This document shows, in pieces, positions 15,815 through 39,284 of a stretch of 64,000 bases of DNA. Origin of the DNA: a virus; the IMG/VR virus record IMGVR_UViG_3300031949_000002; one strand, 5' to 3'. The position numbers and the translations under genes were made by a program. The stretch's first letter is position 1. Each line of letters starts with the position of its first letter. A model generated the notes under the pieces. The model saw nothing but the letters and a program-made list of their open reading frames with translations. It did no database searches and was not told where the DNA came from.

Positions 15815-16012
15815 CTACTGCATGCGCCGAACGCAACTACAGACCTCCCACTTGCCGGTGAGGCGGTGGAGGCCCTCGCCCAAGCACACGATGCAGCTAG
15901 AGTTGGCCTTGTTGGCGGCCCGTTGGATGAAGGTGTTGAGATCGATGCGAAACTCTTCCGTTGACTCGATCCGTCTCGCGCGTGGATCCGGGCTCCCGAA
16001 GATGTACGTCAC
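15815..16012 (-). CDS. Small Zn-ribbon-like hypothetical protein
   Basis: CIVC..CSC; GTG overlaps upstream stop. Confidence 0.5.
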   Translation of the reverse strand: MTYIFGSPDPRARRIESTEEFRIDLNTFIQRAANKANSSCIVCLGEGLHRLTGKWEVCSCVRRMQ

Positions 16013-16263
16013 TTCTTCGCCCGTTTGCCGAACCCCTGCGCGAAGGCGACAGGAACCGTGACGACCGGGAAGATGCCGCCCATCAGCCCCCACCAGATCG
16101 CCCATCCGACCGACTTGTTCCTCTTGTAGCCGTGGTAGGCCGAGATTGCGGTTCCGGCCACACCGAGAGCGCCCCAGAGCACCTTGTAGAGAGTCGAGCG
16201 CGAGGAGGTGTCGGTGTCCTGGCTCAGAGTACCGACACCTTGCGTTCCAGCGGAGAGGTACAT
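16009..16263 (-). CDS. Small membrane protein, MYLS-type N-terminus
   Basis: Two hydrophobic segments around AYHGYKRN, basic tail. Confidence 0.7.
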   Translation of the reverse strand: MYLSAGTQGVGTLSQDTDTSSRSTLYKVLWGALGVAGTAISAYHGYKRNKSVGWAIWWGLMGGIFPVVTVPVAFAQGFGKRAKK

Positions 16264-16302
16264 GAGTCCATTATCCCCTCGCGACAAGGACGAGTCAAGA
16301 AG

Positions 16303-16386
16303 CGGAAGCGGCGCGAATCGAACGCGCGACCTCTTTCGAGGCTCCTGTTTTCAAGACAGGTCAGCAAGCCAACTGCAATCGCTTCC
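16303..16386 (-). tRNA. trnS: tRNA-Ser(TGA)
   Basis: CCTGT-CTTGAAA-ACAGG. Confidence 0.85.
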
Positions 16387-16391
16387 GAGAG

Positions 16392-16480
16392 AGGAAGGTG
16401 CCGGAGTTGAACCGGCAAGACGGTGTTACCCGCCTACTCCGATTCGAGCGGAGCGGACCTGCCGATGTACCAAACCTTCC
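16392..16480 (-). tRNA. trnS: tRNA-Ser(CGA)
   Basis: CTCCG-CTCGAAT-CGGAG. Confidence 0.85.
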
Positions 16481-16492
16481 AAGAACGGTCAA

Positions 16493-16563
16493 TGCCTGCG
16501 AGTGGTAACGCACCACCGTCTTCGGCTTATGAAACCGCCGCTCTACTATTGAGCTACGCAGGC
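16493..16563 (-). tRNA. trnM: tRNA(CAT), elongator Met or Ile2
   Basis: Loop TTCATAA; paired 1:72. Confidence 0.75.
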
Positions 16564-16567
16564 GTGA

Positions 16568-16638
16568 AGCCGACGATCGGGGTTGCACCGATGTTTGCCC
16601 GCTTACAGGGCGGGAGTCTTACCTTAGACGACGTCGGC
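16568..16638 (-). tRNA. trnT: tRNA-Thr(TGT)
   Basis: CCCGC-CCTGTAA-GCGGG. Confidence 0.8.
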
Positions 16639-16643
16639 GTGAA

Positions 16644-16715
16644 AGCTCACGAGCGGAGTCGCACCGCTATCTCCTAGATACCGGCTAGGCGGTCTGACTC
16701 TTGACCTACGCGAGC
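16644..16715 (-). tRNA. trnT: tRNA-Thr(GGT)
   Basis: CCTAG-CCGGTAT-CTAGG. Confidence 0.8.
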
Positions 16716-16719
16716 GAGG

Positions 16720-16974
16720 TTACTTCTTGGCTTGAACTACGATTTTGATTCCACCGTTGACGAAGATGAACGGGAGATACCCGCTCCATGTCTGCTTGGG
16801 AAGCAGGACGATCGTCTTCGACACGAAACCGGCCGTCGCGACCAACTCGATCGGCTCGTTGCCCGGATTTTCGATCGTGATGTCCACCTGGGACCGTCTC
16901 TGCGGCGGAGCGCACGCGGCGAGGAAGCAAAGGACTTCAATGGCGACGAATCGAAGGTTCCACAAAGTCTTCAC
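16720..16974 (-). CDS. Putative small lipoprotein/secreted protein
   Basis: Signal-like N-terminus ending LAAC; start codon lies at IscB element junction. Confidence 0.6.
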   Translation of the reverse strand: MKTLWNLRFVAIEVLCFLAACAPPQRRSQVDITIENPGNEPIELVATAGFVSKTIVLLPKQTWSGYLPFIFVNGGIKIVVQAKK

Positions 16975-18272
16975 GCAGCGGGAGCCCCGGGCTTCAGTCC
17001 AGGGAGGAGCCGCGTTCCTCCATTGTATTCGTAAGCGTCGGAACGATGTACTCGCGTCAGATGCTTCGGATGCACGTCGATCCTACCGATCATGAACGAC
17101 GGACGATGGCGGATCGCCACTTTGCCGATGACAATTCCGGCATATTTCCCTTTCGGAATGACTGCGCGGGCGACGTCCCCGCTCTGCCAGCCTTGAAATG
17201 TCCTGGCTCGCTTCGCGTGCGCCTTCGGGAATCCGAACGCATCGGTCAGGCATCTCTTCCTCCTGCCGTGGCCGATCGCCTTGATACGGAGGGGTACCAA
17301 TACGGCAGGAACACGGACCTCTGCCCCGGATTTCCCGACGCATGCCGCGTCGATCCAGTGCGCCTTCGGGAGTCCGAGCCTCGCCCTATTGAACTTCGTG
17401 CGACCTCCTGTACCGCATTCGACACGCAGTCCCGCCTTCTTGAGCCGCTCGAAGAGTGCCCAACGAGTCGCATTCACAGCAGCGGCGTCTTTGAGCGGTC
17501 GCTTAATTTCTGCCTCGACCTCTGGATGCCCGAACTCCGTAGCGGTCCTGTTCCCTTTTGCCTTGTTGCAGGGATCGCAGGCGAGTGTGAGATTCGAAAC
17601 TCTATTCGACCCACCGCGGCTCTTCGGAACGATATGCTCTACTTCCAGCGGCACATCCCGCACGTCGCAATAGGCGCACTTCCTCCCACGCTTCTCCAAG
17701 AGATACTCCCGCACTTCGTATCCCTGAAGCTCGCCTTGCTGATACTCGATGCCTGAAATCTCCGGGTTCTCCATCAACTGCGTGTCGAACCTCACGAGTT
17801 CAAGCGAGATAGACGAGACCGGCGCGAGACGCCGCGCCCGAAGAAGCCAAGTCTCGACGTTCGCGACGCGGCTCTCCAAGCTCGGAGGAAGCCAGCCCGA
17901 CCTCCGCGTCCTGTTCATGAACCTTGGAGCACGATAGCGAAGATGCCTGCTCCTTCTTCCACGACGGAGAGCGCTCCGAGAACCGAGCGCGTCTCGGATC
18001 GCTTCGCCTCGATGCGTGATCTCCGCGCCCCAGATGATCCTCTTGCCGTTCTTGAGATCCGCAACAAGCGCGAGTCCCGTGATCTTCGAACCCGGATCGA
18101 CCTTGAAGGCCACAGGCTGGACCTCCCCACCGGTCCGATCCTTGAGAATGATCGTGAAAGGGTAGCGCCGATAGATCGCCGCCTTGCCCTTGTCGAGCAA
18201 TTCCTTCGCCCTTGCGGGATGGCACGGCATAAGCGGTTTCTTTTTCCGGTCCAGCACGAAGACCCGCTGCAC
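16971..18272 (-). CDS. iscB: IscB RNA-guided endonuclease (PLMP-RuvC-BH-HNH)
   Basis: PLMPCHPARA, KVDPGSK, RRGRRSR, CAYC..EVEHIVP..SNLTLAC..CN, HWIDAAC. Confidence 0.95.
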   Translation of the reverse strand: MQRVFVLDRKKKPLMPCHPARAKELLDKGKAAIYRRYPFTIILKDRTGGEVQPVAFKVDPGSKITGLALVADLKNGKRIIWGAEITHRGEAIRDALGSRSALRRGRRSRHLRYRAPRFMNRTRRSGWLPPSLESRVANVETWLLRARRLAPVSSISLELVRFDTQLMENPEISGIEYQQGELQGYEVREYLLEKRGRKCAYCDVRDVPLEVEHIVPKSRGGSNRVSNLTLACDPCNKAKGNRTATEFGHPEVEAEIKRPLKDAAAVNATRWALFERLKKAGLRVECGTGGRTKFNRARLGLPKAHWIDAACVGKSGAEVRVPAVLVPLRIKAIGHGRRKRCLTDAFGFPKAHAKRARTFQGWQSGDVARAVIPKGKYAGIVIGKVAIRHRPSFMIGRIDVHPKHLTRVHRSDAYEYNGGTRLLPGLKPGAPAA

Positions 18273-18564
18273 TTCTCGTTCTCCGAAGAATGCCCCGTTA
18301 CCGGGGCCTTTCCGCTCTCGCGGATGAAGTTCGCCTCGACAATGTTGGACGGGCTTTTCGCGTCCGGCACACCGATCTACACCCTCGATCTTTTAATGCC
18401 GGACGACAGAGCGGAGGACTGGCAACGCATCCTCCGGTGTCCTGGCCCGACCAACGTAGTTCGGCGTGTACGTACGTCGCCGAACTGAGTCTGGTCAACG
18501 CGGGCTTACGTCACGGAGTCTTCTCCTTTCCGCAAGCCCCGGACTTTAGTCCGGGGTGGTTGAC
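16973..18564 (-). mobile_element. IS200/IS605-family IscB element
   Basis: Starts GTCAACCACCCCGGACTAAAGTCCGGGG; related hairpin CCCTGGACTGAAGCCCGGGG near the other end; boundaries +/-1 nt. Confidence 0.85.
18275..18564 (-). ncRNA. omegaRNA (HEARO-like) scaffold of IscB
   Basis: GTCAAC..CCCC hairpin, GTTGACCAGACTCAG, AACTACGTT, GACACC..GATGC..CCAGTCC..CTCTGTCG blocks upstream of iscB. Confidence 0.85.
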
Positions 18565-18612
18565 ATCTACTGCACCTCTGCTCTAGTAGTATACCGCATC
18601 GATTCGCTCGCC

Positions 18613-19254
18613 ATGGGTGATTGGTTATTCCAATTCGCATTCCGCAACCCATATAATATCGGTATGGGATGGAAATGCTTCGTGATCGAGAAGTCCCTCT
18701 ACATGCGTCGATCGCTTCGTCGCCACACATCGACCCCATGCGACAAAACGGCGGTGAAGCACCATGATACGACGATCGTCGTAGATGAGTATGTCCCAGC
18801 GCTCGGCCTGAGCGAGGGCGCATTCCTGGGAGACGCGGACGACGAGACGCCTGATCCGCGGTGGCCTCGATTCTGCCTCTGCGGATACCGGTTCCACCTG
18901 GAAGATCACTGGCAGGTGATCATGGACACCCTGTACGCAGGATTTCCGGACCGAAAGCTCTATTCCCTGCGTGACAATGACCTCCCGATCGGGGCGATGT
19001 GGGCATCCGACATGGTCGTTCACAAGGGGCCGGACGGAGCCGCCTGGTGCCTCCGACTTCCGGGAGGAATCGACTGGTCGGTCTACAGCCCGAGTTCGAA
19101 CGGCGTGAAGTGGGACGTCCGTGGCGTCCCGCCGAGCATCACGGTCTCTCCGAGCATTCACATGCCTGGCGTGTTCCATGGATTCGTGATTAGCGGGGTT
19201 ATCCAGGAAGATTGCGACGGCCGGAAGTTCGAAGGGATCCCCCGAACCGCGTAG
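18613..19254 (+). CDS. Hypothetical protein, C-terminal DUF6527-like motif
   Basis: PSITVSPSI..FHGFVISGV; start uncertain (18613 or 18664). Confidence 0.6.
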   Translation: MGDWLFQFAFRNPYNIGMGWKCFVIEKSLYMRRSLRRHTSTPCDKTAVKHHDTTIVVDEYVPALGLSEGAFLGDADDETPDPRWPRFCLCGYRFHLEDHWQVIMDTLYAGFPDRKLYSLRDNDLPIGAMWASDMVVHKGPDGAAWCLRLPGGIDWSVYSPSSNGVKWDVRGVPPSITVSPSIHMPGVFHGFVISGVIQEDCDGRKFEGIPRTA

Positions 19255-19327
19255 TGGACCCGGCAGGGCTCGAACCTGCAATTTCCTCGATGTCACCGAG
19301 GCGTCCTGACCATTGGACGACGGGTCC
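19255..19327 (-). tRNA. trnV: tRNA-Val(GAC)
   Basis: CCTCG-GTGACAT-CGAGG. Confidence 0.85.
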
Positions 19328-19329
19328 GA

Positions 19330-19588
19330 ACGGGACAGACCGTATCCCAGGTGCGCTAACCCCCAAGCCGCTGCCCCTGGAGTGCCTTGTCGATAGCGAC
19401 GGCATCGGGGGGCGGGGGATCGTCGCCTCGCTATGTACCGGCCCGGATCGACCCCCCCCCGCTGTAGACCGCGGGAGGGACTGTACCGGCCAACTCGCGG
19501 GACTCACCCCATTCAGCACATCGGCCTGCCTACAGACCTCAGTATCCTATCGGATGGCTCCGCGCCCCCCGGCGCCGTCGCACTAAAG
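19330..19588 (-). ncRNA. Unassigned ~260-nt structured RNA between tRNA-Pro and tRNA-Val
   Basis: Long-range helices GCGACGGC/GCCGTCGC, GGGGGGCG/CGCCCCCC, CTGTAGGC/GTCTACAG, GGGGGGTCG/CGATCCCCC; G-U pairs favour minus strand. Confidence 0.6.
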
Positions 19589-19590
19589 TA

Positions 19591-19663
19591 TCGGGCTCCG
19601 CGGACTTGCACCGCGCCGTACCCGTTCCCGAAACGGGTGGGACGCTACCTTCCCTTGAGCCCG
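19591..19663 (-). tRNA. trnP: tRNA-Pro(CGG)
   Basis: CGGGCTC/GAGCCCG acceptor; CCCGT-TTCGGGA-ACGGG. Confidence 0.8.
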
Positions 19664-19664
19664 C

Positions 19665-19673
19665 TGGTATAAT
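19665..19673 (+). promoter_or_regulatory. Extended -10 promoter (leaderless)
   Basis: TG-G-TATAAT, ATG 7 nt downstream. Confidence 0.65.
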
Positions 19674-19680
19674 CGCCTCG

Positions 19681-20361
19681 ATGGATGCCGACTGGATCCT
19701 CCACAGGAGCGGCCTGCCCTGGCTGAAGCTCGACATCGTCGTTCCGTATCGCGAGATCTTCGAGGAATCGATCCGAGTTCGCGACCGCTTCGTCACGCAC
19801 CGCTACCGCGGGAAGAAGGCGAACTGGAGAGCGGTCTGCCTCCACGGGATCTCGGCCGAGAAGATCGACAGCCCGAGCGTGTACGGCTTTGCGTCGGAAC
19901 GCGACGCTCCGTATCGATGGACCGACGTCGGGGAGTCGTGTCCGGCGACGAAGCGCTTTGTGGAAAGCCTCGGGTACGCATTCCTCTTCCGTGTCAGGTG
20001 GATGATCCTGGAGCCGGGCGCAGTCGTACCTCCGCACCGCGACTATCCGAAACCGTCCCTCAGCTACCTGAATGCGGCGATTCGCTACCCAAAAGGCTGC
20101 CGCTTCATCGTCCGCGGAGAGGACGTCCCGTTCGAGGACGGAATGGCGATCCTACTCGATGGATCTAACGAGCACTCGGTCCGGAACGACAGCGCGGAGG
20201 ACCGCCTTCATCTCGTGATCCACGGAGATCTCGCAAGTCCGCAGTGGAAGGATCTCGTCGAGAGGAGCTACGCGTTATCGGGGCGACTGGATTTGAACCA
20301 GCGATCTTCTGTCCCCCAGACAGACGGGAATTCCAGGCTTCCCCACGCCCCGTCGATGTGA
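19681..20361 (+). CDS. Asp/Asn beta-hydroxylase-like Fe(II)/2OG dioxygenase
   Basis: LEPGAVVPPHRD; DGSNEHSVRN...RLHLVIHG. Confidence 0.8.
   Translation: MDADWILHRSGLPWLKLDIVVPYREIFEESIRVRDRFVTHRYRGKKANWRAVCLHGISAEKIDSPSVYGFASERDAPYRWTDVGESCPATKRFVESLGYAFLFRVRWMILEPGAVVPPHRDYPKPSLSYLNAAIRYPKGCRFIVRGEDVPFEDGMAILLDGSNEHSVRNDSAEDRLHLVIHGDLASPQWKDLVERSYALSGRLDLNQRSSVPQTDGNSRLPHAPSM
20278..20352 (-). tRNA. trnP: tRNA-Pro(GGG)
   Basis: TCTGT-CTGGGGG-ACAGA; antisense to dioxygenase 3' end. Confidence 0.85.
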
Positions 20362-20428
20362 GCGCCCGGTTACGCTCCGGGTCCCCCTGGGCCACGGCCA
20401 GGTGCGCTACTATTACGCTACGCCCACC
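20357..20428 (-). tRNA. trnH: tRNA-His(GTG)
   Basis: CCTGG-CCGTGGC-CCAGG; atypical T loop AGCGTAA. Confidence 0.7.
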
Positions 20429-20440
20429 ACGAGAAGTAAG

Positions 20441-20511
20441 TCCACCAGGGAAGAGTCGAACTTCCGTTGACCGGTTATCGGCCGGTTCGTCTACCGTTGA
20501 CGTACTGGTGG
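20441..20511 (-). tRNA. trnI: tRNA-Ile(GAT)
   Basis: ACCGG-CCGATAA-CCGGT. Confidence 0.85.
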
Positions 20512-20515
20512 AGGA

Positions 20516-20586
20516 ACGGGGTGACCGGAATTGCACCGGCATCTGCTCCATGGCACGGAGCGATCCTGCTCTTGGACGACACCCCG
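20516..20586 (-). tRNA. trnG: tRNA-Gly(GCC)
   Basis: GCTCC-GTGCCAT-GGAGC; U73. Confidence 0.85.
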
Positions 20587-20591
20587 AATGG

Positions 20592-20662
20592 CCGCCCCGC
20601 TGGGAATCGAACCCAGGCCCTCCGCTTCAAAGGCGGCTGCACTACCATTATGCGACAGGGCA
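20592..20662 (-). tRNA. trnQ: tRNA-Gln(TTG)
   Basis: Loop CTTTGAA. Confidence 0.85.
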
Positions 20663-20668
20663 ACGAAA

Positions 20669-20758
20669 TGGGCGCGGCAGGATTCGAACCTGCATCCCTC
20701 TCGGTTGACCGGGTTACGGCCGGTTGAGCACTTTGTCCCAGACCTGCTCAGCGCGCCC
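20669..20758 (-). tRNA. trnY: tRNA-Tyr(GTA), enlarged D loop
   Basis: ACCGG-CCGTAAC-CCGGT, long variable arm. Confidence 0.8.
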
Positions 20759-20765
20759 GCGGAAA

Positions 20766-20838
20766 TGGACGGGAGGAGAATCGAACTCCCCGCACGCTGC
20801 GTGCAAGACAGCATCGCCACCTTGGTACATGCCCGCCC
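20766..20838 (-). tRNA. trnA: tRNA-Ala(TGC)
   Basis: G3:U70; loop CTTGCAC. Confidence 0.85.
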
Positions 20839-20842
20839 ATAG

Positions 20843-20914
20843 TGGACTCGAAAGGATTCGAACCTTCGTCTGCCGATCGCGAACCGGCTGCTCTACCTAT
20901 TGAGCTACGAGCCC
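20843..20914 (-). tRNA. trnA: tRNA-Ala(CGC)
   Basis: G3:U70; loop TTCGCGA. Confidence 0.85.
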
Positions 20915-20917
20915 TTA

Positions 20918-21003
20918 TCCCTCTGCGTTCTACCCTCCGTCGTCGCGGAGTCAGCAGATCATCCCACCCGTCGATGGAAGCCCAGTGGTAGCGCACGAGG
21001 GGA
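20918..21003 (-). ncRNA. Candidate ~86-nt small RNA
   Basis: Ends pair (TCCCCTCGTGCGCTACC / GGTAGAACGCAGAGGGA); internal CTCCG/CGGAG hairpin. Confidence 0.4.
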
Positions 21004-21006
21004 GAT

Positions 21007-21083
21007 TGGTGCCGCCCCCCGGAGTCGAACCGGGACCTGTCGCTTTTCAGACGACCGTCCAAAACCACCTAGACCAGAGCGGC
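21007..21083 (-). tRNA. trnF: tRNA-Phe(GAA), encoded CCA
   Basis: GTCGT-CTGAAAA-GCGAC. Confidence 0.85.
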
Positions 21084-21269
21084 GTGAAGTTCCTCTGCGG
21101 CGATCTCGATCGTGTCTCCGACCTTCCAAGGTTTGCTGTGGAAGCGGACGCGGATCGTCTTTATGTCGGAGAGATCGAAGAGCGTGTAGATGACCTCGGG
21201 AGAGATGAAGTCCGAGTGCGAGGCGCGTGGACCTGCCACTAACGCGACGACCCGATACTCCCGACTCAT
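21069..21269 (-). CDS. Hypothetical protein
   Basis: 66 aa between tRNAs, overlaps tRNA-Phe 5' end. Confidence 0.45.
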   Translation of the reverse strand: MSREYRVVALVAGPRASHSDFISPEVIYTLFDLSDIKTIRVRFHSKPWKVGDTIEIAAEELHAALV

Positions 21270-21281
21270 TAATCTATTGTA

Positions 21282-21353
21282 CTGCCTCGCTGGGGTTCGA
21301 ACCCAAACTTCCCGGGTCAGAGCCGGGCGGTCTTCCAGTTAGCCTACGAGGCA
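21282..21353 (-). tRNA. trnQ: tRNA-Gln(CTG)
   Basis: CCCGG-CTCTGAC-CCGGG. Confidence 0.85.
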
Positions 21354-21354
21354 A

Positions 21355-21431
21355 TGGCACCCCCGATGGGAGTCGCACCCACTTTCTTCGCCTTGACAAG
21401 GCGACGTCTCCACTGCTTCGACCTCGGGGGT
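21355..21431 (-). tRNA. trnD: tRNA-Asp(GTC), encoded CCA
   Basis: TCGCC-TTGTCAA-GGCGA. Confidence 0.85.
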
Positions 21432-21436
21432 ACGGA

Positions 21437-21507
21437 CAGGCCGTAGAGGACTCGCACCTCTGACTTCCGTTTTGGAGACGGATGCGTTTCTACTACGCCA
21501 ACGGCCT
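21437..21507 (-). tRNA. trnW: tRNA-Trp(CCA)
   Basis: TCCGT-CTCCAAA-ACGGA. Confidence 0.85.
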
Positions 21508-21510
21508 ATT

Positions 21511-21584
21511 TGGACCGGGCGAGGAGAGTTGAACTCCCGACTCGAACTTGGGAAGTTCGCGCGTTTCCGTTACGCCACGCCCGG
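21511..21584 (-). tRNA. trnG: tRNA-Gly(CCC), encoded CCA
   Basis: CGAAC-TTCCCAA-GTTCG. Confidence 0.85.
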
Positions 21585-21598
21585 GTGTTGCATGCGAG

Positions 21599-21669
21599 TG
21601 CGGGCGACCGGGCTCGAACCGGTACGACGACTTTGGAAAAGTCGCAGGCTGCCATTACCTCACGCCCGC
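21599..21669 (-). tRNA. trnG: tRNA-Gly(TCC)
   Basis: CGACT-TTTCCAA-AGTCG. Confidence 0.85.
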
Positions 21670-21673
21670 AAGT

Positions 21674-21712
21674 CGGAGAGAGGCATCTGCATCCGGCAGA
21701 CGCCTCCCTCCG
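21674..21712 (-). other. 17-bp hairpin immediately 5' of the first tRNA (possible processing stem)
   Basis: CGGAGGGAGGCGTCTGC / GCAGATGCCTCTCTCCG. Confidence 0.5.
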
Positions 21713-21798
21713 TTTGTTTCTCTCGTTTCGACCCGATTGCCAAAAAGCTGTTCGACCCGTCCCGGCTACCGCCGATGGAGCGAATCGATCCCGGGAAA

Positions 21799-21836
21799 CA
21801 AAAAAACCCGCGGCCGGTCTCCCCGGGCGCGGGTTC
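21799..21836 (-). terminator. Intrinsic terminator upstream of tRNA cluster
   Basis: AACCCGCG-CCCGG..CCGG-CCGCGGGTT followed by T run. Confidence 0.7.
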
Positions 21837-22035
21837 ATCAAGTTTCGTTCTCTACTTCATCTTGTCACCCCGCACCCGGGCCTCGCGTGCCCGACCGAGT
21901 TATCCTCGTACAGGCGCGTACCGAGGATCACGGCGGACAAGGGCGCAAACGAGGCGGACCATGTCCGCTGGCCGGTACGTTCCGGTCGCTTGCTTCCTTG
22001 CCTCTGGCGGGTTACCTGCATCATCGTCACCGCTG

Positions 22036-22064
22036 AACCTACGCTACGATCCAGAGAAAGTCAA
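22036..22064 (-). promoter_or_regulatory. Sigma70-type promoter
   Basis: TTGACT-17-TAGGTT. Confidence 0.55.
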
Positions 22065-22081
22065 GCACAAAATTCGAACCG

Positions 22082-22519
22082 CTACGGAATCCTGTTCCCG
22101 GCCTCGTCGAACCACGGCCTCCTCTTCTCTCCCGAGTAGGCCCTGGCGAGCCCCTCCGTGAGCAGGATCTCCGCGGCCGATCTCCAGCCGTCGCCTTCCG
22201 GGAACTCGACGTCGGCGAGCCATCGGCCGTACTGGTCCTCGGATTCCTTGCGTGAGCCCGGCTTGTAGGTCCGAAGGATGACTTCCTTCCCGAGGATCAG
22301 AGACTCCATCCGCGCCTTCGCGCGCTGCGCGAGGGTGCGCTCGTGCTGATTCGAGGATCTGAGTTCGGGCGTGTCGATCCCGTTGATCCGGTAGGTATCG
22401 ACGTCGTAGTCCTTCTTGCCGCGGTCGGTCAGTGCCGTGATCGTGTCTCCGTCTACGACGATCAGGACCTGTGCCCGATAGTGGAAGAGCTTCGGATGCG
22501 TAAGCGTAAACTTGATCAT
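22082..22519 (-). CDS. Thermonuclease (SNase-like)
   Basis: VVDGDT, RINGIDTPE, DQYGRWLADV, GLARAY. Confidence 0.9.
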   Translation of the reverse strand: MIKFTLTHPKLFHYRAQVLIVVDGDTITALTDRGKKDYDVDTYRINGIDTPELRSSNQHERTLAQRAKARMESLILGKEVILRTYKPGSRKESEDQYGRWLADVEFPEGDGWRSAAEILLTEGLARAYSGEKRRPWFDEAGNRIP

Positions 22520-22528
22520 CGGATCCTC

Positions 22529-22944: not shown

Positions 22945-22946
22945 GG

Positions 22947-23252: not shown

Positions 23253-23284
23253 GTATCGTTGCAGATCTCATCGCGCGTTCCATG

Positions 23285-32662: not shown

Positions 32663-33265
32663 CTAGACCTCCTCGGCGAACCCAAAGGAGCGAATAGAGA
32701 GCGCTTTTCCGTCCGGAGCTTCCGCGTGATCTCCGACCACGATCGGCTCCGTGGCGTTCACCACCCCACCCGAGAAGATCGGGTAGTTGTCCGGGTAGTA
32801 GTACTGGTCCGGCGGGCACCAGAAGAAGTACTCACCATCGGCCGTCTCGATCCAGTAGCAGTCGTCGTACCACGGCTCGACGATCCAGCCCGCGTTGATC
32901 AGGTACGGGAAGAGATCGACGCTGACGATGTGGTGCCGATGCCTCGGACGACCCCAGCGGTGCCGCCAGTCGCCACGACGCGGATGACCGGGCCAGCGGC
33001 TCCGATCCGCTCCACGCGGAAAACCGCGCCCGGGGAGCCCAGGCATCCGACCCGGACGACCGCCCGCGGGACCTCCAGGCCCGGGACGCCGACCCGGACC
33101 ACGAGGCGCGACCGGGACCGCGGGAGGACGCGCGCCACCGGGCCGCGGCGCTCCACCGGCTCGACCTCCACCACCAGGACGTCCGCCGCCTCCAGCGGGA
33201 CGACCCCCACCGCCACCACCGCCCGGACGCCCTCCTCCACCGCCAGGTCCTCGTCCTAGATACAT
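32663..33265 (-). CDS. Gly/Pro/Arg-rich protein, MYLG-type N-terminus
   Basis: GGGGRP repeats then aromatic/acidic domain. Confidence 0.65.
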   Translation of the reverse strand: MYLGRGPGGGGGRPGGGGGGGRPAGGGGRPGGGGRAGGAPRPGGARPPAVPVAPRGPGRRPGPGGPAGGRPGRMPGLPGRGFPRGADRSRWPGHPRRGDWRHRWGRPRHRHHIVSVDLFPYLINAGWIVEPWYDDCYWIETADGEYFFWCPPDQYYYPDNYPIFSGGVVNATEPIVVGDHAEAPDGKALSIRSFGFAEEV

Positions 33266-33286
33266 ATTGCCTCCATTCGAGAATGT

Positions 33287-33489
33287 TCAGCGTCGAGTAG
33301 ACTGGGCAACGATCTGCCCAGTGCTAAGGTCCACCACATGCCACCAGTCGCGATCTCCTCCCTTGACGTTCGCAGCCCCGATCAGGGCTTCTCGCTCCGT
33401 TTCAAACGCGCCCTGGAAGTCGTACCATCCTCCCGATGGGTAGTAATCGGAGCCTGCGAAAGGAGGTACCGGAAGTTGTTCTCCCTCAT
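33287..33489 (-). pseudogene. Small gene with a 1-nt frameshift
   Basis: MRENNFRYLL in one frame continues as FAGSDYYPSGGWYDF in another; one T short at 33459-33461. Confidence 0.5.
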
Positions 33490-33791
33490 GTCGGCCTCGA
33501 CCAGACTCCAACGGAGCGGAACACGTAGAGGTAAGGATCGGCCCACTCCTTCCGGAAGAGGCCGCCACTCGACGTCGGGAGGCTGGAGATCCAGCGAACG
33601 AACTCCCGCTTGAACTCCTCGATGTCCCGCAGCCGGTCCACCATCACCTCGACGAAGGTCCGAGCCGTCCCGCCCCGAAGCGCCCTGAACCCTACCGTTC
33701 CCCGCGGCGCTGCTCCTTGATGCGAGAGATGACCCTGGAGCCATCCCGCGATCCGACCGACCGGAGCATTCGGCGCTTCGTTCAGGTACAT
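33486..33791 (-). CDS. Hypothetical protein, MYLN-type N-terminus
   Basis: GAGGAG upstream; starts just after upstream stop. Confidence 0.55.
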   Translation of the reverse strand: MYLNEAPNAPVGRIAGWLQGHLSHQGAAPRGTVGFRALRGGTARTFVEVMVDRLRDIEEFKREFVRWISSLPTSSGGLFRKEWADPYLYVFRSVGVWSRPT

Positions 33792-33793
33792 AG

Positions 33794-34126
33794 CTACGAT
33801 ACTCTCCTCAAGATCGGATCCACTTTCCTTCCGCCGACCCACCGGATCAGCGCGGCGACACCGAACCCCACGATCCCGAGACCGAGCGCGTATCCGGCCG
33901 CTCCGAGCGCGGAACTGATGAACGCTTCCTTCCGTCGCTCTCCCGCCGTCAACTGGAGATGCATCGTCTCCTTCAGAGCCGCTTTCGCGATCTCGCGCTC
34001 GTCGTCCTCCGTAAGCTCGATGCTCGTCCCCATCGGAGTCACGAGCGTCGCGAATCCGCCCGGCTTCGGCACGAGACTGTAGCTTTGCGAAAGCCCGACC
34101 GCGGTCGCCGTCCCGCTAAGATACAT
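33794..34126 (-). CDS. Membrane protein, MYLS-type N-terminus
   Basis: C-terminal TM helix + basic tail. Confidence 0.65.
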   Translation of the reverse strand: MYLSGTATAVGLSQSYSLVPKPGGFATLVTPMGTSIELTEDDEREIAKAALKETMHLQLTAGERRKEAFISSALGAAGYALGLGIVGFGVAALIRWVGGRKVDPILRRVS

Positions 34127-35486
34127 GCGCCTTCCCCTTCTTCTTTTTCGAGAGCGCGATCGCGAGGACGATTCCTCCCACGACAACGCCCCCTCCGACC
34201 AGAAGGACCGGCGTCCAAGGGAACGGAGCCCTCGGCTCCGGCGTCCACTCCTTCACGGACGGGACTCTCGCAAGGATCCACCGCTGGAACGTCGCGAGAG
34301 CCTCGTCCGGCACGCTCAAGACCTTGTAGATCTCCTTCTCGACCTCTTGCGATTCCTTCATGAGCCGCATCGTGAGCGAAAGACCGACCAGCTTGCCCAC
34401 GATGCTGTTGACCGCACCGATCATCGCCGGAGCGGCCGATAGCCCGATCAGGAGCCCAAGCGCCTTGAAGGCGTATCCTACGATCTTCCCTTCGCGCGCC
34501 TCGCTCTTCAAGTGCTCTTCCTGCTTCTTCAGGTAACGCTGGAACTCCGCCTCGAAGTGCCGCGCGAGAGCGTCCGGGTTGTTCTGGAGGAACTGCGCGA
34601 CGTCCCGTTCGATCTCCTCGCGAGACCGCGGGAAGTAGTCCGACATCGTTAGCTCAGGATCGAAGTAGCGGTACTCCTGGTAGAACGCGGGCGGGAACGG
34701 AGCCTCCTTGCCGTGCGTTTTCCGTTCCGTCGTCAGGCCCTGGAAGAACTCGTGCGGCCACGGGATCGAGAGATGAACCTCCTGAAGCATCCGCACGTTC
34801 CGGATCGCGGCGGCGATCCGTTCGGCCGGGATCGACCGATCGACCGCCCAGTTCACGTACGCGCCGAGAAACCCTCTCCACTCGATCGGGAGAGGATCGT
34901 CCGGGAAGGGAGGAAGCTCCTGCCCGATCCGGAAGTACTTGATCCCTCCGACGCTCGGCACCGGCCAGCTTTGCGTCCGAACTCCGCTCTTGTATTCCTT
35001 CAGGATCTTCTCCGCGCCGACCACGTATTCGAACCGCTGAGGCGTGTCCTGCCCGGACGCTGCGGCTTCGTACCACTTCCGAACGGGCCACCAGTCCCGG
35101 ATCCTCTCGATGTTTCCCGCCACGTCGCCGCGGATCAACTGCGGACCGGGCGGAGCAACCGCCTCCTTCAGGTAGCAGCCCCCGCTCTGCGCCGGAGAGC
35201 CCGGGTTGACCAGCCTGTACTCTTCCGCCGGAGAGCACGCGGGAGGAACGAAGCACTTCTTCGCGAGCGGATCGTAGATCTGACCCTGCGGACAATCCGC
35301 CTGACTTGCCGGAGCCTGCGTCGTGGTCGTCGTGGTAGGGCTCGGCGTGTAGGTGATGGTCGGAATCGGACCGGAGACCTGGATACCTACCGTGCCGGTC
35401 GGTCCGGTGTAGGTATAGGGAGACATGATCTGCCCAAGCCTACCCTTAGACCCGACTCCCGACAAGGCTCCGCTCGATACGTACAT
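34116..35486 (-). CDS. Putative virion membrane protein, MYVS-type N-terminus
   Basis: Thr-rich linker, Cys motif, C-terminal TM + KKKK. Confidence 0.7.
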   Translation of the reverse strand: MYVSSGALSGVGSKGRLGQIMSPYTYTGPTGTVGIQVSGPIPTITYTPSPTTTTTTQAPASQADCPQGQIYDPLAKKCFVPPACSPAEEYRLVNPGSPAQSGGCYLKEAVAPPGPQLIRGDVAGNIERIRDWWPVRKWYEAAASGQDTPQRFEYVVGAEKILKEYKSGVRTQSWPVPSVGGIKYFRIGQELPPFPDDPLPIEWRGFLGAYVNWAVDRSIPAERIAAAIRNVRMLQEVHLSIPWPHEFFQGLTTERKTHGKEAPFPPAFYQEYRYFDPELTMSDYFPRSREEIERDVAQFLQNNPDALARHFEAEFQRYLKKQEEHLKSEAREGKIVGYAFKALGLLIGLSAAPAMIGAVNSIVGKLVGLSLTMRLMKESQEVEKEIYKVLSVPDEALATFQRWILARVPSVKEWTPEPRAPFPWTPVLLVGGGVVVGGIVLAIALSKKKKGKAHVS

Positions 35487-35611
35487 CTGCTCCGATCGCT
35501 CCTTTACGCTTTTCCCGCGCCCGTAACGCTCCCGCACTTGACGCAGGTCGAGAACAGCATCCCCTTGTACGCCTCGACCTCGCTCTCCCACGGAGCGCCC
35601 CACTCGTGGGG

Positions 35612-36301
35612 TCATGTGCGCGGATTCGGTTTTCCCTTCTTGATCCTCTTGAGTTCGCCCTCGGCGGCTTTCCGCGCCTCGCCCTCCACATAGCTGAGAT
35701 CTCCGATGAAACCCCAGCAGGAGTCGATAACCTCGCCCTCCGTCACTTCCCCCGTCTCCGGATCTTCCTTGTCCCCCTCACGGACCTCGTATCCGTAGAC
35801 TTGACCGCTCAGGTAGAGGTCGTACGTCTCGACATCCGAGACAAGGGTCCTCTCCGCATCTTCCAGCGCCTTCTTCACTTCCGGGCCGAACCAGCGCTTC
35901 CCGGCGTACTTTCCGTGAAGCTTCTCCGGCAGAACTACGCCGAACTCCTTCTCCACGTCCGCACGCGTCGCATAGGTGAACCCGACTCGACCGCTGTCCC
36001 ACTCCGCATGTTGCGCGCGGCCCATGAAGCTGCCAGTGCTGATTCGGAGGCCGCTGTGGTCGTAGAGCCAGAGCGGCAGGATGACCGCGGCATCGTGGTT
36101 CTCGATGAGGTCTTTTTCAAGCTCCCGCCAGGAACCGTAGTTACTCGACTTGAAGTCGGTCTTGTCGCCGAGGTTGTACCGCTTGTGGAACGCGACCATC
36201 GTTCCGAAGTTGTCGTATTCCTCCCGCGGATTGATCGGATCTTCATCGTAGTAGATCGTGACCGTCAGGTCTCCGACCTTGAAGCTCTTTACCTCGTCCA
36301 C
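35612..36301 (-). CDS. Hypothetical protein
   Basis: YDEDPINPREEYDNFG..LPLWLYDHSGL..CWGFIG. Confidence 0.7.
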   Translation of the reverse strand: MDEVKSFKVGDLTVTIYYDEDPINPREEYDNFGTMVAFHKRYNLGDKTDFKSSNYGSWRELEKDLIENHDAAVILPLWLYDHSGLRISTGSFMGRAQHAEWDSGRVGFTYATRADVEKEFGVVLPEKLHGKYAGKRWFGPEVKKALEDAERTLVSDVETYDLYLSGQVYGYEVREGDKEDPETGEVTEGEVIDSCWGFIGDLSYVEGEARKAAEGELKRIKKGKPNPRT

Positions 36302-36302
36302 G

Positions 36303-36608
36303 CTATTCCTCCTCTGGGAATCCGAAGTCCACGCCGAACATGGACCCTCCGTTCGGAATGTGGACGACACCCATCGACCGCTTCATCCCGTAGCCGTACC
36401 GCGGCGTCTGCTCGAACGGGCTCGTCGCGACCTGCGGGAACTGCGGAAAATCCACGCTCTCCGGCTGCTCGAAAATGACCGGCTCCGGGCCTACCATCTC
36501 CTCCGTCTCGAACGGACTCATCATATCGGTGTCGAAAAGCGTCTCGACAGGATTGGGCCGTAGCCGCGAGCCCGCGCCGGGCAAATGACCAAGGTCGTTG
36601 ACGTACAT
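36303..36608 (-). CDS. Hypothetical protein, MYVN-type N-terminus
   Basis: 101 aa, low complexity. Confidence 0.55.
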   Translation of the reverse strand: MYVNDLGHLPGAGSRLRPNPVETLFDTDMMSPFETEEMVGPEPVIFEQPESVDFPQFPQVATSPFEQTPRYGYGMKRSMGVVHIPNGGSMFGVDFGFPEEE

Positions 36609-36609
36609 G

Positions 36610-36852
36610 CTACCGAGGCCCCCTGCGCCGTTCGTCGTGGATCTCGAACCACTGGAAGATTTCCGGGACGGGGAAGAACGGCGTCTTCCGTCTCGGACCG
36701 GTCGAAATGAAGATGACCGGCAGATCCTCCTGCTGGTCGATCCAGCGGTACACGGTCTGCACCGCGACACCGCATCGGTTCGCAACCTCGGCCGCGGTGA
36801 TGGACCGGCTTAGGATTTCCTCGATTATGCGCTGGTCGGTCAGATAGCTCAC
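36610..36852 (-). CDS. HTH DNA-binding protein (HTH_17/excisionase-like)
   Basis: ITAAEVANRCGVAVQTVYRWI. Confidence 0.75.
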   Translation of the reverse strand: MSYLTDQRIIEEILSRSITAAEVANRCGVAVQTVYRWIDQQEDLPVIFISTGPRRKTPFFPVPEIFQWFEIHDERRRGPR

Positions 36853-36872
36853 GTATTTTCCCTAACGAATAT

Positions 36873-37142
36873 TTACTCGAACCGGACCGGGGCTTCAGCG
36901 CCCGAGACGACGTCGGAGAGATTGGCCCAGGCACCGACGTCGAATCCCTGCGGATCCAGCATCCAAAGCTGAGGCTCTTTGCCCGGCCCCCAGAAGATCG
37001 AGTGAGCCCTCCACTCTTGACCTTTCTTCGTTTTCCCCAGCGTGGATCCGTTTCGGATATTGACCACGATACTGCCCCCGCGAGCCAGCGTCACGATGTC
37101 GCGTCTCGTCTCGATCATGCCGCTCGTACCGGCCTTTGCCAC
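36873..37142 (-). CDS. Hypothetical protein
   Basis: 89 aa, first gene after conserved 26-nt element. Confidence 0.55.
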   Translation of the reverse strand: MAKAGTSGMIETRRDIVTLARGGSIVVNIRNGSTLGKTKKGQEWRAHSIFWGPGKEPQLWMLDPQGFDVGAWANLSDVVSGAEAPVRFE

Positions 37143-37156
37143 GGAACCCCCTTTGG

Positions 37157-37182
37157 GTTAATTGTAAACAAATTCTCAGTTT
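37157..37182 (-). promoter_or_regulatory. Conserved AT-rich 26-nt element, copy 1
   Basis: Identical to 49943-49968; minus strand AAACTGAGAATTTGTTTACAATTAAC contains TACAAT. Confidence 0.75.
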
Positions 37183-37223
37183 CGGAGAAGAAGAAATGAT
37201 CCTCTTCTTGGGAGATCCCGTGC

Positions 37224-39284
37224 CTACTCGCCGTCGTCCGCAGGACCGTCCGTGTCGTCGTCGCAGAAGCCGAACTCGACGCCGGAGATCGCCTCTCCGA
37301 GGGCGTTCACGTCGCGGATCCCGTTCTCCTCGACGCACTTTAGGCGCTTGACTGCACCTTCCGTGGTCTCGTATTCGACCCTGTACTCCGAGCGTTCCTT
37401 CGGAGGGAGAGCGCCCTCCTGCGCTCCATGCCAGAGCCACCACTCGGGGCTGCCTGGAGTGATCCACTTAGGAGGAGTCGCACCTTTCGGAGCCCTCAGA
37501 GCACGAGGATCGGTCGTGGGGACCCAAGACTGAGCCTTAAGGTCCCAAACCGTCCAGGTTGTCGGCGCGTCTTTGACCAAGGTCTTCCGCTCGCTTTTCC
37601 AGCGCCTGCCGAACAATTTCCACTCCATACGCTCGATATTGTCGGGGCCGATCGTGGAGCGGAGCTTACCGGCCTCTTCTACCGCCTTGCGGACCGCGTC
37701 TTCTTGGGGCGTCCATGTGACGTGCCCTTCCTCGGCCGGAGGAACCGCGTACGGTCCTTCGTCATCGGGAGGGAACTGGTCCCATGGCTGCCCTTCGCCC
37801 TCGGGAGCCCTCCCTCGGGGAGGTTTCTCCGGCTTCGGCTTCCTTCCGGCAGGAGGCAGCGGCTTCCCAGGCTTCCCCTGTCCAGGGAACTCCTCGACCG
37901 GGATCTCCATGCCAGGGTAGTCCATCGGCAGCTTTGCGTCGGGGAACTTCTCGGCTCCACCACCGGGCTTCGACTTGTCGGACGGAGCAGAAGGTCCGGG
38001 AGGGGGCGGGAAGTCGAACCGCAGCGGACCGGATTTCGGCGGCCTCAGCCCCGCACCGGACGTCTCTTCTTTCTCGGTCGGAAGAAGACCCTCCTCGTCG
38101 AATTGCATCCACGGAGGAGGCTCGACGGCGGGTTCGAACGGGAGCTTGGGCTCGCCGGGACGCTTCCAGGGAACGGGCTCGGCGCCAGACGGAGGCTTGG
38201 GTTTTCTAGGCGTCAGAGCTTCCCCTGCTCGCCGCGCAGGAAGCCCCTCCTCCGGGAATTCCTCCCACGGCTCGGCTTCCTTCTTCGATGGGACCCCGAC
38301 CACAGCTTTGAACTGCGTCGTAGGATAGAGCGTCGTGAGAGCGACGTGCTGATCGGTCCGCGGCAGGTAGCGAACGGTGACCGTGTCCCGCGGATGGATC
38401 GTGAAGGTCACGGGCTTCCCCACCTTCATATCCTCGCGCAGCCGGTTCGCGATGCTCGCGAACAACATCGCGAGCGCTGTGTACCGGTCCTGCGTCTCCT
38501 TGACCTTCGAACGTCGGGCAGCGGAGGCCCACCAGCTTTCGAGATACTCGAAATGCTTCTTCAGCGCTTCCTGGACGTCCGGATCGAGCGTGAAGGCGCC
38601 GACCGGGACTCCGTACGCGCGCTGCCGGAGGCGGATCGACATCGCGAAGATCTGCACGGCCCAGCGGATCAGGTTCGCGCGGTTCGTCGGATCCTTCTCC
38701 TTCTTCGACTCTTCCTCCAGTCGGTACGCTTCCTTCTCCAGTTCGTCCGCCTCGGAGAGCAGGCCCTCCGCGGCCTTAGTGAGCTTCGGGGGCTGAGGAG
38801 CCGGGCTGGTCGGAGTAACCGTCGCGTAGGACATCTTCTCGGCGCGGTCCGCGCGCTCGAAGAGTTCATTCGCAACCGTTTCGAGCTTGAGCGCGCTCGT
38901 CCGGCACATCTCGCTGAGCACGGGGTTCGCTGCCTTGAACTTCGCCGCGAGCTTGCGCAGATCCTGAGCCTGCTGCTGGTATCGAGCGCCCGCCTCCTGG
39001 TACTCCTCGGACGTCCTCGGCGTCTTCGGAGGCGTGTACGACGTCAGCGCCAGCGAGATGAGTTCCGTTTCGATCGGGGGATGGGCGGGCGCGGGAGATT
39101 TGTCGAACTGCCACTCAGGCTCAGCCAGTACGTTCCCTGTCAGAATCGCGTCAGGGTCCTCAGAAACTGTACCTGACCGGTTAACCTCAACGACGTTTCC
39201 CTCGACGACCTCCTCAGGCCCCGAGGGCACTCGCCCGCCGCCGGTTCGCGAAGGCGCTCCGAGCCCTTCCCTACCAAGGTACAT
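37224..39284 (-). CDS. Pro-rich 686-aa protein, MYLG-type N-terminus
   Basis: GGAGG RBS; helical core and long Pro-rich disordered tract. Confidence 0.75.
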   Translation of the reverse strand: MYLGREGLGAPSRTGGGRVPSGPEEVVEGNVVEVNRSGTVSEDPDAILTGNVLAEPEWQFDKSPAPAHPPIETELISLALTSYTPPKTPRTSEEYQEAGARYQQQAQDLRKLAAKFKAANPVLSEMCRTSALKLETVANELFERADRAEKMSYATVTPTSPAPQPPKLTKAAEGLLSEADELEKEAYRLEEESKKEKDPTNRANLIRWAVQIFAMSIRLRQRAYGVPVGAFTLDPDVQEALKKHFEYLESWWASAARRSKVKETQDRYTALAMLFASIANRLREDMKVGKPVTFTIHPRDTVTVRYLPRTDQHVALTTLYPTTQFKAVVGVPSKKEAEPWEEFPEEGLPARRAGEALTPRKPKPPSGAEPVPWKRPGEPKLPFEPAVEPPPWMQFDEEGLLPTEKEETSGAGLRPPKSGPLRFDFPPPPGPSAPSDKSKPGGGAEKFPDAKLPMDYPGMEIPVEEFPGQGKPGKPLPPAGRKPKPEKPPRGRAPEGEGQPWDQFPPDDEGPYAVPPAEEGHVTWTPQEDAVRKAVEEAGKLRSTIGPDNIERMEWKLFGRRWKSERKTLVKDAPTTWTVWDLKAQSWVPTTDPRALRAPKGATPPKWITPGSPEWWLWHGAQEGALPPKERSEYRVEYETTEGAVKRLKCVEENGIRDVNALGEAISGVEFGFCDDDTDGPADDGE

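Follow-up and report, generated by a model that had tools for sequence, protein, structure and literature searches.

Genes that open with a shared peptide

The window analysed here, a stretch of 64,000 nucleotides from a 341-kb contig of an uncultured giant soil phage, carries eight genes whose products begin Met-Tyr-[Leu/Val]-[Ser/Gly/Asn], as a preliminary description of the DNA had pointed out. We found all eight of the genes listed there, at the positions given in Table 1, as ATG-TAY-[CG]TN-(Ser/Gly/Asn) starts on the minus strand, with ORFs spanning 84–686 amino acids. The Gly-rich leaders described at the same time are also real, glycine accounting for 21 of the 72 residues at positions 5–13 as read off the N-termini, and so is the combination of a transmembrane (TM) segment with a basic tail in the products of the genes starting at 16263, 34126 and 35486. 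Two further members, MYLS at 24660 and MYIS at 4989, start with GTG, and public gene callers make the same calls. The tagged genes make up ~11% of the window's gene content, about one gene in nine, and the protein bodies behind the tag, of 76–686 residues, are unrelated.

There are 28 ATGTAY sites in the window, counting both strands; [LV][SGN] comes next in only eight, and every one of these heads a long ORF. Amino-acid composition predicts 0.06 tagged starts in ~90 genes, giving a probability of 5e-15 for eight or more, and a control phage of 364 kb had no MY[LV][SGN] start among its 475 genes, with tyrosine at position 2 in 1.7%. Independent gene callers agree on nine of the ten tagged starts. 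A public protein collection contains seven of the eight ATG-tagged proteins with exactly these starts, which means that an independent gene caller had picked the same ones; the exception is the Gly-rich ORF at 33265, for which the public gene caller chose an overlapping frame (32899–33240), and codon scores prefer the 33265 frame only from ~32960 downwards. A recognisable Shine–Dalgarno (SD) site is present at six of the eight ATG starts, and those at 39284 and 33265 have no alternative in-frame start upstream. The starts at 36608 and 33791 sit 1–2 nt after an upstream stop codon (at 36608, 1 nt past that of the HTH gene), a spacing that fits translational coupling, and at 34126 the start shares 11 nt with the end of the gene upstream.

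Table 1. Tagged genes and neighbouring features of the window, all on the minus strand.
Feature	Position	Length	Description
Ser/Thr protein kinase gene	39375..41117		C-terminal TPR repeats; directly upstream of tagged run
MYLG gene	37224..39284	686 aa	Pro-rich, acidic, no TM
Promoter-like element	37157..37182	26 nt	AT-rich; heads operon with six tagged genes
MYVN gene	36303..36608	101 aa	C-terminal end FGFPEEE
phrog_6186 gene	35612..36301	229 aa	Widespread phage family, inside tagged run
MYVS gene (P0001)	34116..35486	456 aa	Only member with homologues found
MYLS gene	33794..34126	110 aa	C-terminal hydrophobic segment and basic tail
MYLN gene	33486..33791	101 aa	Soluble; start 2 nt past upstream stop
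MYLG ORF	32663..33265	200 aa	Good SD site; least certain start of the set
MYIG ORF (M-Y-I-G-E-D)	32582..32662	26 codons	GTG start; follows directly on the stop codon of FGFAEEV; doubtful gene
MYLN gene	31864..32448	194 aa	Soluble
MYLS gene	24430..24660	76 aa	GTG start; two hydrophobic segments, basic tail RHLKNR
MYLS gene	16009..16263	84 aa	Small membrane protein, tail KRAKK
MYIS gene (M-Y-I-S-D)	4672..4989	105 aa	GTG start; marginal member, soluble, Cys-rich C-terminus

The 686-residue MYLG protein, for which a word search found no homologue, carries FGFCDDD towards its C-terminus, followed by an acidic tail, and the product of the 33265 ORF consists of ~110 Gly/Pro/Arg-rich residues and a Trp/Tyr-rich domain that ends in FGFAEEV. 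P0001 combines a PWPH box with a K/E-rich helix and a TM hairpin, and its C-terminus carries FPW, a TM anchor and a KKKK tail. For the 194-residue MYLN protein, the single-sequence fold was poor (pLDDT 44), a small C-terminal beta-beta-alpha-beta unit being the exception. The model of the phrog_6186 protein was confident (pLDDT 87) and matches no solved fold; the neighbours of this family in other phages carry no MY tags. The gene for the 84-residue MYLS protein occupies a gap between two tRNA-Ser genes in an array of nine verified tRNA genes at 14.5–17.2 kb, part of the large tRNA set that this phage carries, and the 26-nt promoter-like element has an identical copy at 49943.

A protein-level tag on unrelated proteins

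The signal resides in the protein rather than in the RNA, and selection acts at the protein level. Synonymous codons vary within the tag (CTC, CTG, CTA and CTT for leucine; TCC, AGC and TCG for serine), the DNA upstream of the tagged starts shows no conservation and the ribosome-binding sites are unlike one another, and no common mRNA fold was found at these starts, the folding energy being −13.5 kcal/mol, compared with −14.0 kcal/mol for other genes; a signal in the RNA is ruled out by these three observations. Paralogy of the tagged proteins could also be discarded, because all-against-all BLASTP similarity was confined to low-complexity runs.

Several types can be told apart among the members. 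Each of the four MY[LV]S proteins is a membrane protein whose C-tail is basic, and three other members bear a C-terminal FGFx(D/E)3 motif, which is absent elsewhere in the six-frame translation. An acidic residue is found at position 5–6 in five of the six soluble members (five of ten overall); in the remaining five, which are the four membrane members plus the Gly-rich one, the first 14 positions hold no acidic residue, and the 84-residue protein lacks glutamate entirely. Five of the ten members have a hydrophobic-Gly pair at residues 6–12, matches at residue 3 being the MYLG starts themselves. The tags do not resemble Sec, Tat or lipoprotein signal peptides, being rich in glycine and serine, with no hydrophobic stretch in the first 20 residues and with neither an RR motif (Tat) nor a cysteine (lipoprotein).

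No tagged protein gave a match in Pfam, PHROGs or NCBIfam, word-based searches with P0001, P0002 and an 825-residue window protein returned only the query itself, and the ESM Atlas provided no usable lead. An exhaustive phmmer search with P0001, in contrast to these null results, recovered 25 distant homologue clusters at 22–31% identity in other metagenomic contigs of unassigned type (2–64 kb); none was found in IMG/VR, GTDB genomes or GenBank phages. The 25 representatives align with P0001 over residues 203–420 only, so that the tag region lies outside the alignment. Even so, an opening of the form M(x)[YF][LVAI][STNGA] occurs in seven of the 25 and in none of 475 control proteins (P = 3e-10), and [LM]G lies within the first 30 residues of 16 of the 25 compared with 34 of the 475 (P = 9e-12). 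The openings include MYLSS (in one homologue), MFVSVENLGQ and MFASLENLGQ. That distant homologues of P0001 open with a related peptide is new here and, as many of them do so, the tag is old and under selection; homologues are known for only one of the ten tagged proteins, so that its conservation across genomes rests on one family. Weak support for the explanation favoured below comes from the Pfam family SseC (PF04888, a type III translocator), which matches two of 23 P0001 family members over the helix and TM hairpin, the best match, 34.5 bits over 77 residues of helix and TM, being one that may be compositional; comparison of the P0001 family profile with PDB sequences gave nothing meaningful.

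Role of the tag

The preliminary description proposed an N-terminal sorting or packaging signal. A signal of this general kind fits the protein-level conservation on unrelated proteins and the related peptide in the distant homologues of one member, whereas binding by a partner and the destination of the proteins, be it the capsid, a membrane complex or another site, are inferred. A close precedent is the capsid-targeting sequence (CTS) of T4, a 10-residue N-terminal peptide on diverse internal proteins that is enough by itself to bring foreign proteins into the prohead, and T4 Alt carries propeptides at both ends (PMC3012670, PMC9026906). As in IPI, IPII, IPIII and the propeptides of Alt and gp24, a short peptide is conserved here at the extreme N-terminus of otherwise unrelated, fast-evolving bodies and, as in Alt, signals may lie at both ends, three members adding the FGFx(D/E)3 motif. 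However, the sequence of the tag is unrelated to that of T4, four tagged members are membrane proteins, and the tag is found on about a tenth of the window genes, as opposed to a handful of proteins in T4. A prohead-protease site (L/I-x-E in T4; A/S/G-x-E in phiKZ and SPN3US) is also not general in the tags. The lack of such a site, the membrane proteins and the second, C-terminal motif may point to a different reader.

Other systems share single aspects of the arrangement. The giant phage SPN3US packages many ejection proteins, one of which has a TM domain, and an identical 15-residue N-terminus persists in two of its paralogous proteins that have otherwise diverged (PMC5694885). The likeness to SPN3US and phiKZ lies in phage size, in a common N-terminus on diverged proteins and in a TM ejection protein, but their propeptides are mostly longer than 100 residues and are cut after glutamate, whereas the tag is ~13 residues long, and the shared N-terminus of SPN3US links paralogues, which the tagged proteins are not. 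In Staphylococcus phage 80alpha, the capsid and scaffold proteins carry an N-terminal motif that copies the extension of host L27 and that a host cysteine protease cleaves at F|A (PMC5744158), so that one motif on non-homologous phage proteins is read by a single host factor; none of the tagged members has F-A or FF-A among its first 15 residues. Encapsulin targeting peptides, which dock cargo inside an HK97-fold shell, have a hydrophobic-Gly-Ser/Thr core with a nearby Arg or Lys and a flexible linker of 10–20 residues (PMC7925596). Several tags read GVGS-K, GAGS-R or GLGAPS-R, a likeness of low information content, although the encapsulin peptide is C-terminal and the tag is N-terminal with an invariant Met-Tyr start.

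The explanation that we favour, with about an even chance of being correct, is that the peptide is a portable, cytoplasmic N-terminal docking tag for a putative common partner, its most likely use being to load proteins into a phage structure during assembly. The tag would comprise M-Y-[LVI]-[SGN] followed within ~10 residues by a hydrophobic-Gly pair, in a flexible Gly/Ser-rich stretch at a free N-terminus, which in the membrane members is predicted to face the cytoplasm. Tyrosine at position 2 blocks Met aminopeptidase, and the initiating methionine should therefore be retained. A single partner, encoded by phage or host, would bind the tag and treat some ten unrelated proteins as a set; these would most likely be destined for the prohead and be delivered alongside the DNA, as for the T4 sequence, and one cargo would be the membrane-inserting P0001 family. 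No capsid, portal, scaffold or prohead-protease gene adjoins the tagged run, whose neighbours are the kinase gene, an HTH protein gene and a gene of an unassigned family. Two members, of 76–84 residues, are holin-like proteins with two TM segments and would be odd cargo for a capsid.

We can also picture, although we think it improbable, a more specific version of the docking tag in which the uncleaved peptide binds the inner face of an HK97-type shell or the portal, much as encapsulin cargo-loading peptides work, and brings about a tenth of the proteome into the head, to be delivered along with the DNA; a translocon-like membrane-inserting protein and small membrane proteins would be among the cargo. 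The FGF-acidic motif would then be a second contact or a handle for the TPR kinase; that the kinase-TPR protein might read the acidic C-tails is an idea only.

Among the alternatives, the one that survives best, though we consider it unlikely, is that the tag assembles a membrane-associated complex in the infected cell that is not part of the virion, the MY[LV]S proteins serving as anchors and the soluble members docking through the same partner. Four of the ten members are indeed membrane proteins with basic cytoplasmic tails, all with serine at position 4, and the translationally coupled operon contains regulators rather than virion genes. However, nothing indicates interaction among the members, the soluble ones are very diverse, and the tag is too little hydrophobic or amphipathic to bind a membrane alone.

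It appears improbable that the tag acts as a degron, or as a target for N-terminal modification, and times stability or activity through, for example, an adaptor of a host AAA+ protease or the neighbouring Ser/Thr kinase. The tag is laid out like a bacterial N-degron, with aromatic and aliphatic residues at a free N-terminus ahead of an unstructured spacer; the kinase-TPR gene lies directly upstream, and the tails of the membrane members are rich in serine and threonine. Nevertheless, because Met-Tyr resists Met aminopeptidase, the tyrosine would not become N-terminal without an extra enzyme, none of which is seen in the window, and no phospho-acceptor consensus is evident.

Rather less probable still is an effect on translation, in which the nascent Met-Tyr-Leu/Val-x gives efficient early elongation and has been reused as a preferred start cassette. 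Conserved amino acids with free synonymous choice would fit a nascent-peptide effect as well, and the phage has its own large tRNA set, but this leaves unexplained why the Gly and hydrophobic-Gly pattern extends to residue 12, why protein class is tied to residue 4 and why the distant homologues conserve the longer ENLGQ motif. Very unlikely, in our judgement, is a functionless historical residue, left when new genes were captured time and again downstream of a single duplicated gene start: a stretch of 7.5 kb holds seven members, and the internal-protein loci of T4 swap cassettes between conserved flanks, but the unlike upstream DNA and ribosome-binding sites, the scrambled synonymous sites, the three members 8–28 kb away from the cluster and the persistence of related tags in homologues at 22–31% identity all argue against it.

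The function of orphan genes is a long-standing gap in the understanding of giant phages, since most such genes lack homologues. Shared address tags would reveal which of these genes act together or travel in the particle, and tagging may be a general organizing principle of large phage proteomes. If sufficient for loading or docking, the 13-residue tag would be a practical handle for the delivery of proteins by phages.

Relatives of the window and type of virion

The only detectable relatives of the window were found through a 1002-residue protein, shared at 32–33% identity with 42 IMG/VR contigs; the relatives, on contigs of 180–390 kb, have no MY tags and almost nothing else in common with the window. 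A large terminase (TerL) is encoded on each of the five contigs tested, and a contractile sheath on four of them. The 825-residue window protein matches PHROG ‘head protein’ families and, to our knowledge, genomes of 341 kb with a large tRNA set are so far known from tailed phages only. The membrane-containing, possibly tailless double-jelly-roll virion suggested in the preliminary description is, on this indirect evidence, not supported, and we give very little credence to the tagged proteins being its internal-membrane proteins: there are several small membrane proteins, tail genes were not recognised within this window and the P0001 homologues lie on contigs of only 2–64 kb, but the contig size and tRNA set, the head-protein match and the terminase and sheath genes of the relatives all stand against it. 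A search of the relatives with PF05065 gave no capsid match, which says little because the capsid proteins of giant phages are divergent. When whole sequences were compared, the 1002-residue protein was the sole protein that contig G008 had in common with the window, and four window proteins had matches in the Tunturiibacter phage Tunturi_5.

Tagged starts and their level of conservation

The preliminary description had listed eight genes opening with M-Y-[LV]-[SGN], and all eight were found where it had placed them, on the minus strand, heading open reading frames of 84–686 aa. Among the 28 ATGTAY sites of the window, counted on both strands, only these eight are followed by [LV] and then [SGN], and each heads a long ORF. 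A Shine–Dalgarno site at normal spacing precedes six of the eight; two starts lie 1–2 nt past the stop of the previous gene and another start lies 11 nt inside the gene before it, and we therefore read the 31.8–37.1-kb run as a translationally coupled operon. An AT-rich 26-nt element stands at the head of this run, with an identical copy at 49943. Seven of the eight proteins were recovered by exact look-up in a public protein collection with precisely the same starts, which were thus picked by an independent gene caller. The exception is the Gly-rich 33265 ORF, for which the public caller took an overlapping frame; codon-score support for the MYLG frame is limited to its C-terminal half, and we retain it as a tagged member with an uncertain start. 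Nine tRNAs were confirmed around the 16263 gene.

Allowing GTG starts adds two members, both in the public collection with identical starts, for a total of ten tagged genes among approximately 90. A 26-codon GTG ORF beginning M-Y-I-G, directly past the stop of the 33265 gene, is doubtful as a real gene.

Positions of the tagged genes and of other features in the window
Feature	Position	Strand	Remarks
MYLG gene	39284 (start)	minus	
MYVN gene	36608 (start)	minus	
MYVS gene	34116-35486	minus	456 aa
MYLS gene	34126 (start)	minus	
MYLN gene	33791 (start)	minus	
MYLG gene	33265 (start)	minus	Gly-rich
MYLN gene	32448 (start)	minus	
MYLS gene	16263 (start)	minus	
M-Y-L-S member, GTG start	24660-24430	minus	76 aa; two hydrophobic segments; C-terminal end RHLKNR
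M-Y-I-S-D member, GTG start	4989-4672	minus	105 aa; soluble
Public-annotation ORF	32899-33240	minus	113 aa
Unannotated ORF	33287-33568	minus	no ATG
Glu-Glu codons/Shine–Dalgarno sites	32663-32690, 36303-36330	minus	GAGGAG
phrog_6186 gene	35612-36301	minus	229 aa
1002-aa protein gene	8900-11908	minus	
825-aa protein gene	56767-59244		
M(x)RKGDF[LI] proteins	56074-56508, 59943-60308, 61038-61457	minus	poly-Gly run follows
E-K-R-W(G) occurrences	23285-49569	minus	13, in frame

Amino-acid composition predicts 0.06 starts of the M-Y-[LV]-[SGN] type (probability of at least eight, 5e-15). In a 364-kb control phage, Tyr stands at residue 2 in 1.7% of the 475 genes, none of the 475 has an MY[LV][SGN] start, and any N-terminal four-residue word occurs at most three times. 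The codons of the tags are mixed (CTC, CTG, CTA and CTT for Leu; TCC, AGC and TCG for Ser), the 70 nt upstream of the tagged starts share no sequence, and start-region folding is no better than that of other genes (−13.5 vs −14.0 kcal/mol), with no common structure. The bodies of the proteins, compared all-against-all by BLASTP, showed no similarity beyond low-complexity runs. Taken together, these results indicate that the signal is the peptide, M-Y-[LVI]-[SGN] with a Gly-rich stretch behind it. Gly makes up 21 of the 72 residues at tag positions 5–13; five members have a hydrophobic-Gly pair at residues 6–12, a pattern that both MYLG proteins fit at residue 3.

Two further ORFs were noted beside the 33265 gene. 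The 113-aa public-annotation ORF is Val/Arg/Ala-rich, has no protein-like features and probably represents a high-GC shadow frame opposite no gene of its own but within the MYLG gene. The unannotated ORF, whose codon scores are positive and whose sequence is protein-like (GGWYDFQGAFETEREAL...), occupies a 220-nt 'gap' 3' of the 33791 MYLN gene. The first available start, a GTG, gives an overlap of about 80 nt with the upstream gene. The ORF has no entry in the public protein collection and may represent either a gene of its own or a C-terminal part reached by frameshifting.

Sub-classes and homologues

The four MY[LV]S members are without exception membrane proteins whose C-terminal tail is basic, and the positive-inside rule predicts cytoplasmic N-termini for them. 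Asp or Glu occupies position 5–6 in five of the six soluble members; the membrane members have neither before position 15. Three soluble members (39284, 36608 and 33265) end in FGF-x-(D/E)3, a motif expected about 0.004 times in C-termini and found in the six-frame translation of the window three times, always C-terminally in a tagged protein. For two of these genes the GAGGAG encoding Glu-Glu is also the Shine–Dalgarno site of the next gene; the acidic residues of the motif may thus reflect a ribosome-binding-site or translational-coupling constraint, which does not account for FGF. Carboxylate-clamp TPRs read EEVD tails, and by analogy the kinase encoded upstream could read the acidic C-terminal tails here through its TPR domain.

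None of the tagged proteins matched Pfam, PHROGs or NCBIfam, and word-based searches returned the queries themselves only. An exhaustive HMMER search, run for the 456-aa MYVS protein, gave 25 representatives (E 1e-25 to 6e-6, 23–34% identity), aligned over residues 203–420 only, a part comprising a PWPH box, a Lys/Glu-rich helix and a TM hairpin; a C-terminal FPW(W) and TM anchor are common to them. Two of 23 homologues matched Pfam SseC (type III translocator) over the helix and hairpin, a weak and possibly compositional match. The homologues sit on contigs of 2–64 kb, and none was found in IMG/VR, GTDB genomes or GenBank phages.

Many homologue N-termini, which fall outside the aligned residues, have a related opening, for example MYLSS...GVGDLG, MFVSVENLGQ, MFASLENLGQ, MFASLGNLG, MSFLTLSSLG and MSYLASGD...SLGMGQ, and one homologue begins at the equivalent of residue 15 in the 456-aa MYVS protein (RLGQIM). 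A start of the form M(x)[YF][LVAI][STNGA] occurs in seven of the 25, against 0/475 control proteins (P = 3e-10), and [LM]G within the first 30 residues in 16 of the 25, against 7% of controls (P = 9e-12); a MAFFT alignment places the LG in register across the family. Judged from these sequences, the tag is older than this phage. Its persistence at 23–34% body identity argues for function; a historical residue is kept as a rival explanation.

A proposed docking tag and its precedents

The tag is a free, flexible N-terminal peptide, cytoplasmic, maintained by selection, carried by unrelated proteins and distinct from Sec, Tat and lipoprotein signals; these features give it the look of a docking tag, which a single partner would read. 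The earlier proposal of a sorting or packaging signal fits the finding of a conserved peptide on unrelated proteins; the capsid or a membrane complex would be candidate destinations.

Its best precedent comes from T4, whose internal proteins, diverse in other respects, share a capsid-targeting sequence of ten residues that is enough to bring foreign proteins into the prohead (PMC3012670, PMC9026906). In T4 Alt both ends carry a signal (PMC9026906, PMC3012670), as in three tagged members here. Giant phages package many ejection proteins; among those of SPN3US is one with a TM domain, and the same 15 N-terminal residues are retained in two of its paralogues that have diverged (PMC5694885). Such a CTS-like tag is already known as a general idea; the literature searched yielded no description of this peptide, or of such tags in giant phages apart from the SPN3US work. 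A possible likeness, of low information content, is that of the hydrophobic-Gly-Ser/Thr...Arg core to encapsulin targeting peptides (PMC7925596).

Unlike the T4 kind, however, the tags here have no general Glu-ending protease site, holin-like membrane proteins of 76–84 aa would be odd cargo, and instead of head genes the tagged run has a kinase, an HTH protein and an unknown family as its neighbours. For these reasons we settle on a portable docking tag, a reading to which we give about even chances; within that total, capsid loading, the likeliest destination, is given chances clearly below even. A non-virion membrane complex, a degron or modification site, and a nascent-peptide effect are kept as rivals.

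Kind of virus and neighbouring features

The tagged proteins are encoded on a 341,371-bp contig. The 825-aa protein matches PHROG 'head protein' families at 9e-10, and the 1002-aa protein has full-length relatives (32–33% identity) on IMG/VR contigs of 180–390 kb, as well as a weaker one in the Acidobacteria jumbo phage Tunturi_5 (Caudoviricetes). A large terminase was found in all five of the tested contigs carrying such relatives, and a contractile sheath in four. Otherwise these relatives have hardly anything in common with the window, and they lack MY tags, so the argument on virus type is indirect; it points to a tailed giant phage, and the membrane-containing, possibly tailless virion proposed earlier found no support.

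The M(x)RKGDF[LI] opening is a second N-terminal tag, carried by small proteins encoded on either side of the 825-aa head-like gene; their bodies are only weakly similar. E-K-R-W(G) recurs at N-terminal, C-terminal and internal positions in different proteins, none with the MY tag. The phrog_6186 family has a wide distribution among tailed phages and is also present in a Nitrosopumilaceae spindle-shaped virus; its invariant columns are His, Asp-Ser-Gly and (Asp-Ser-Cys)-Trp-Gly. The model was confident (pLDDT 87) and matched no solved fold, and the family may be an undescribed enzyme. The 1002-aa protein, without a known domain, is kept at 27–40% identity in 42 IMG/VR contigs, many of 130–390 kb, and its family is a possible marker for one group of huge phages.
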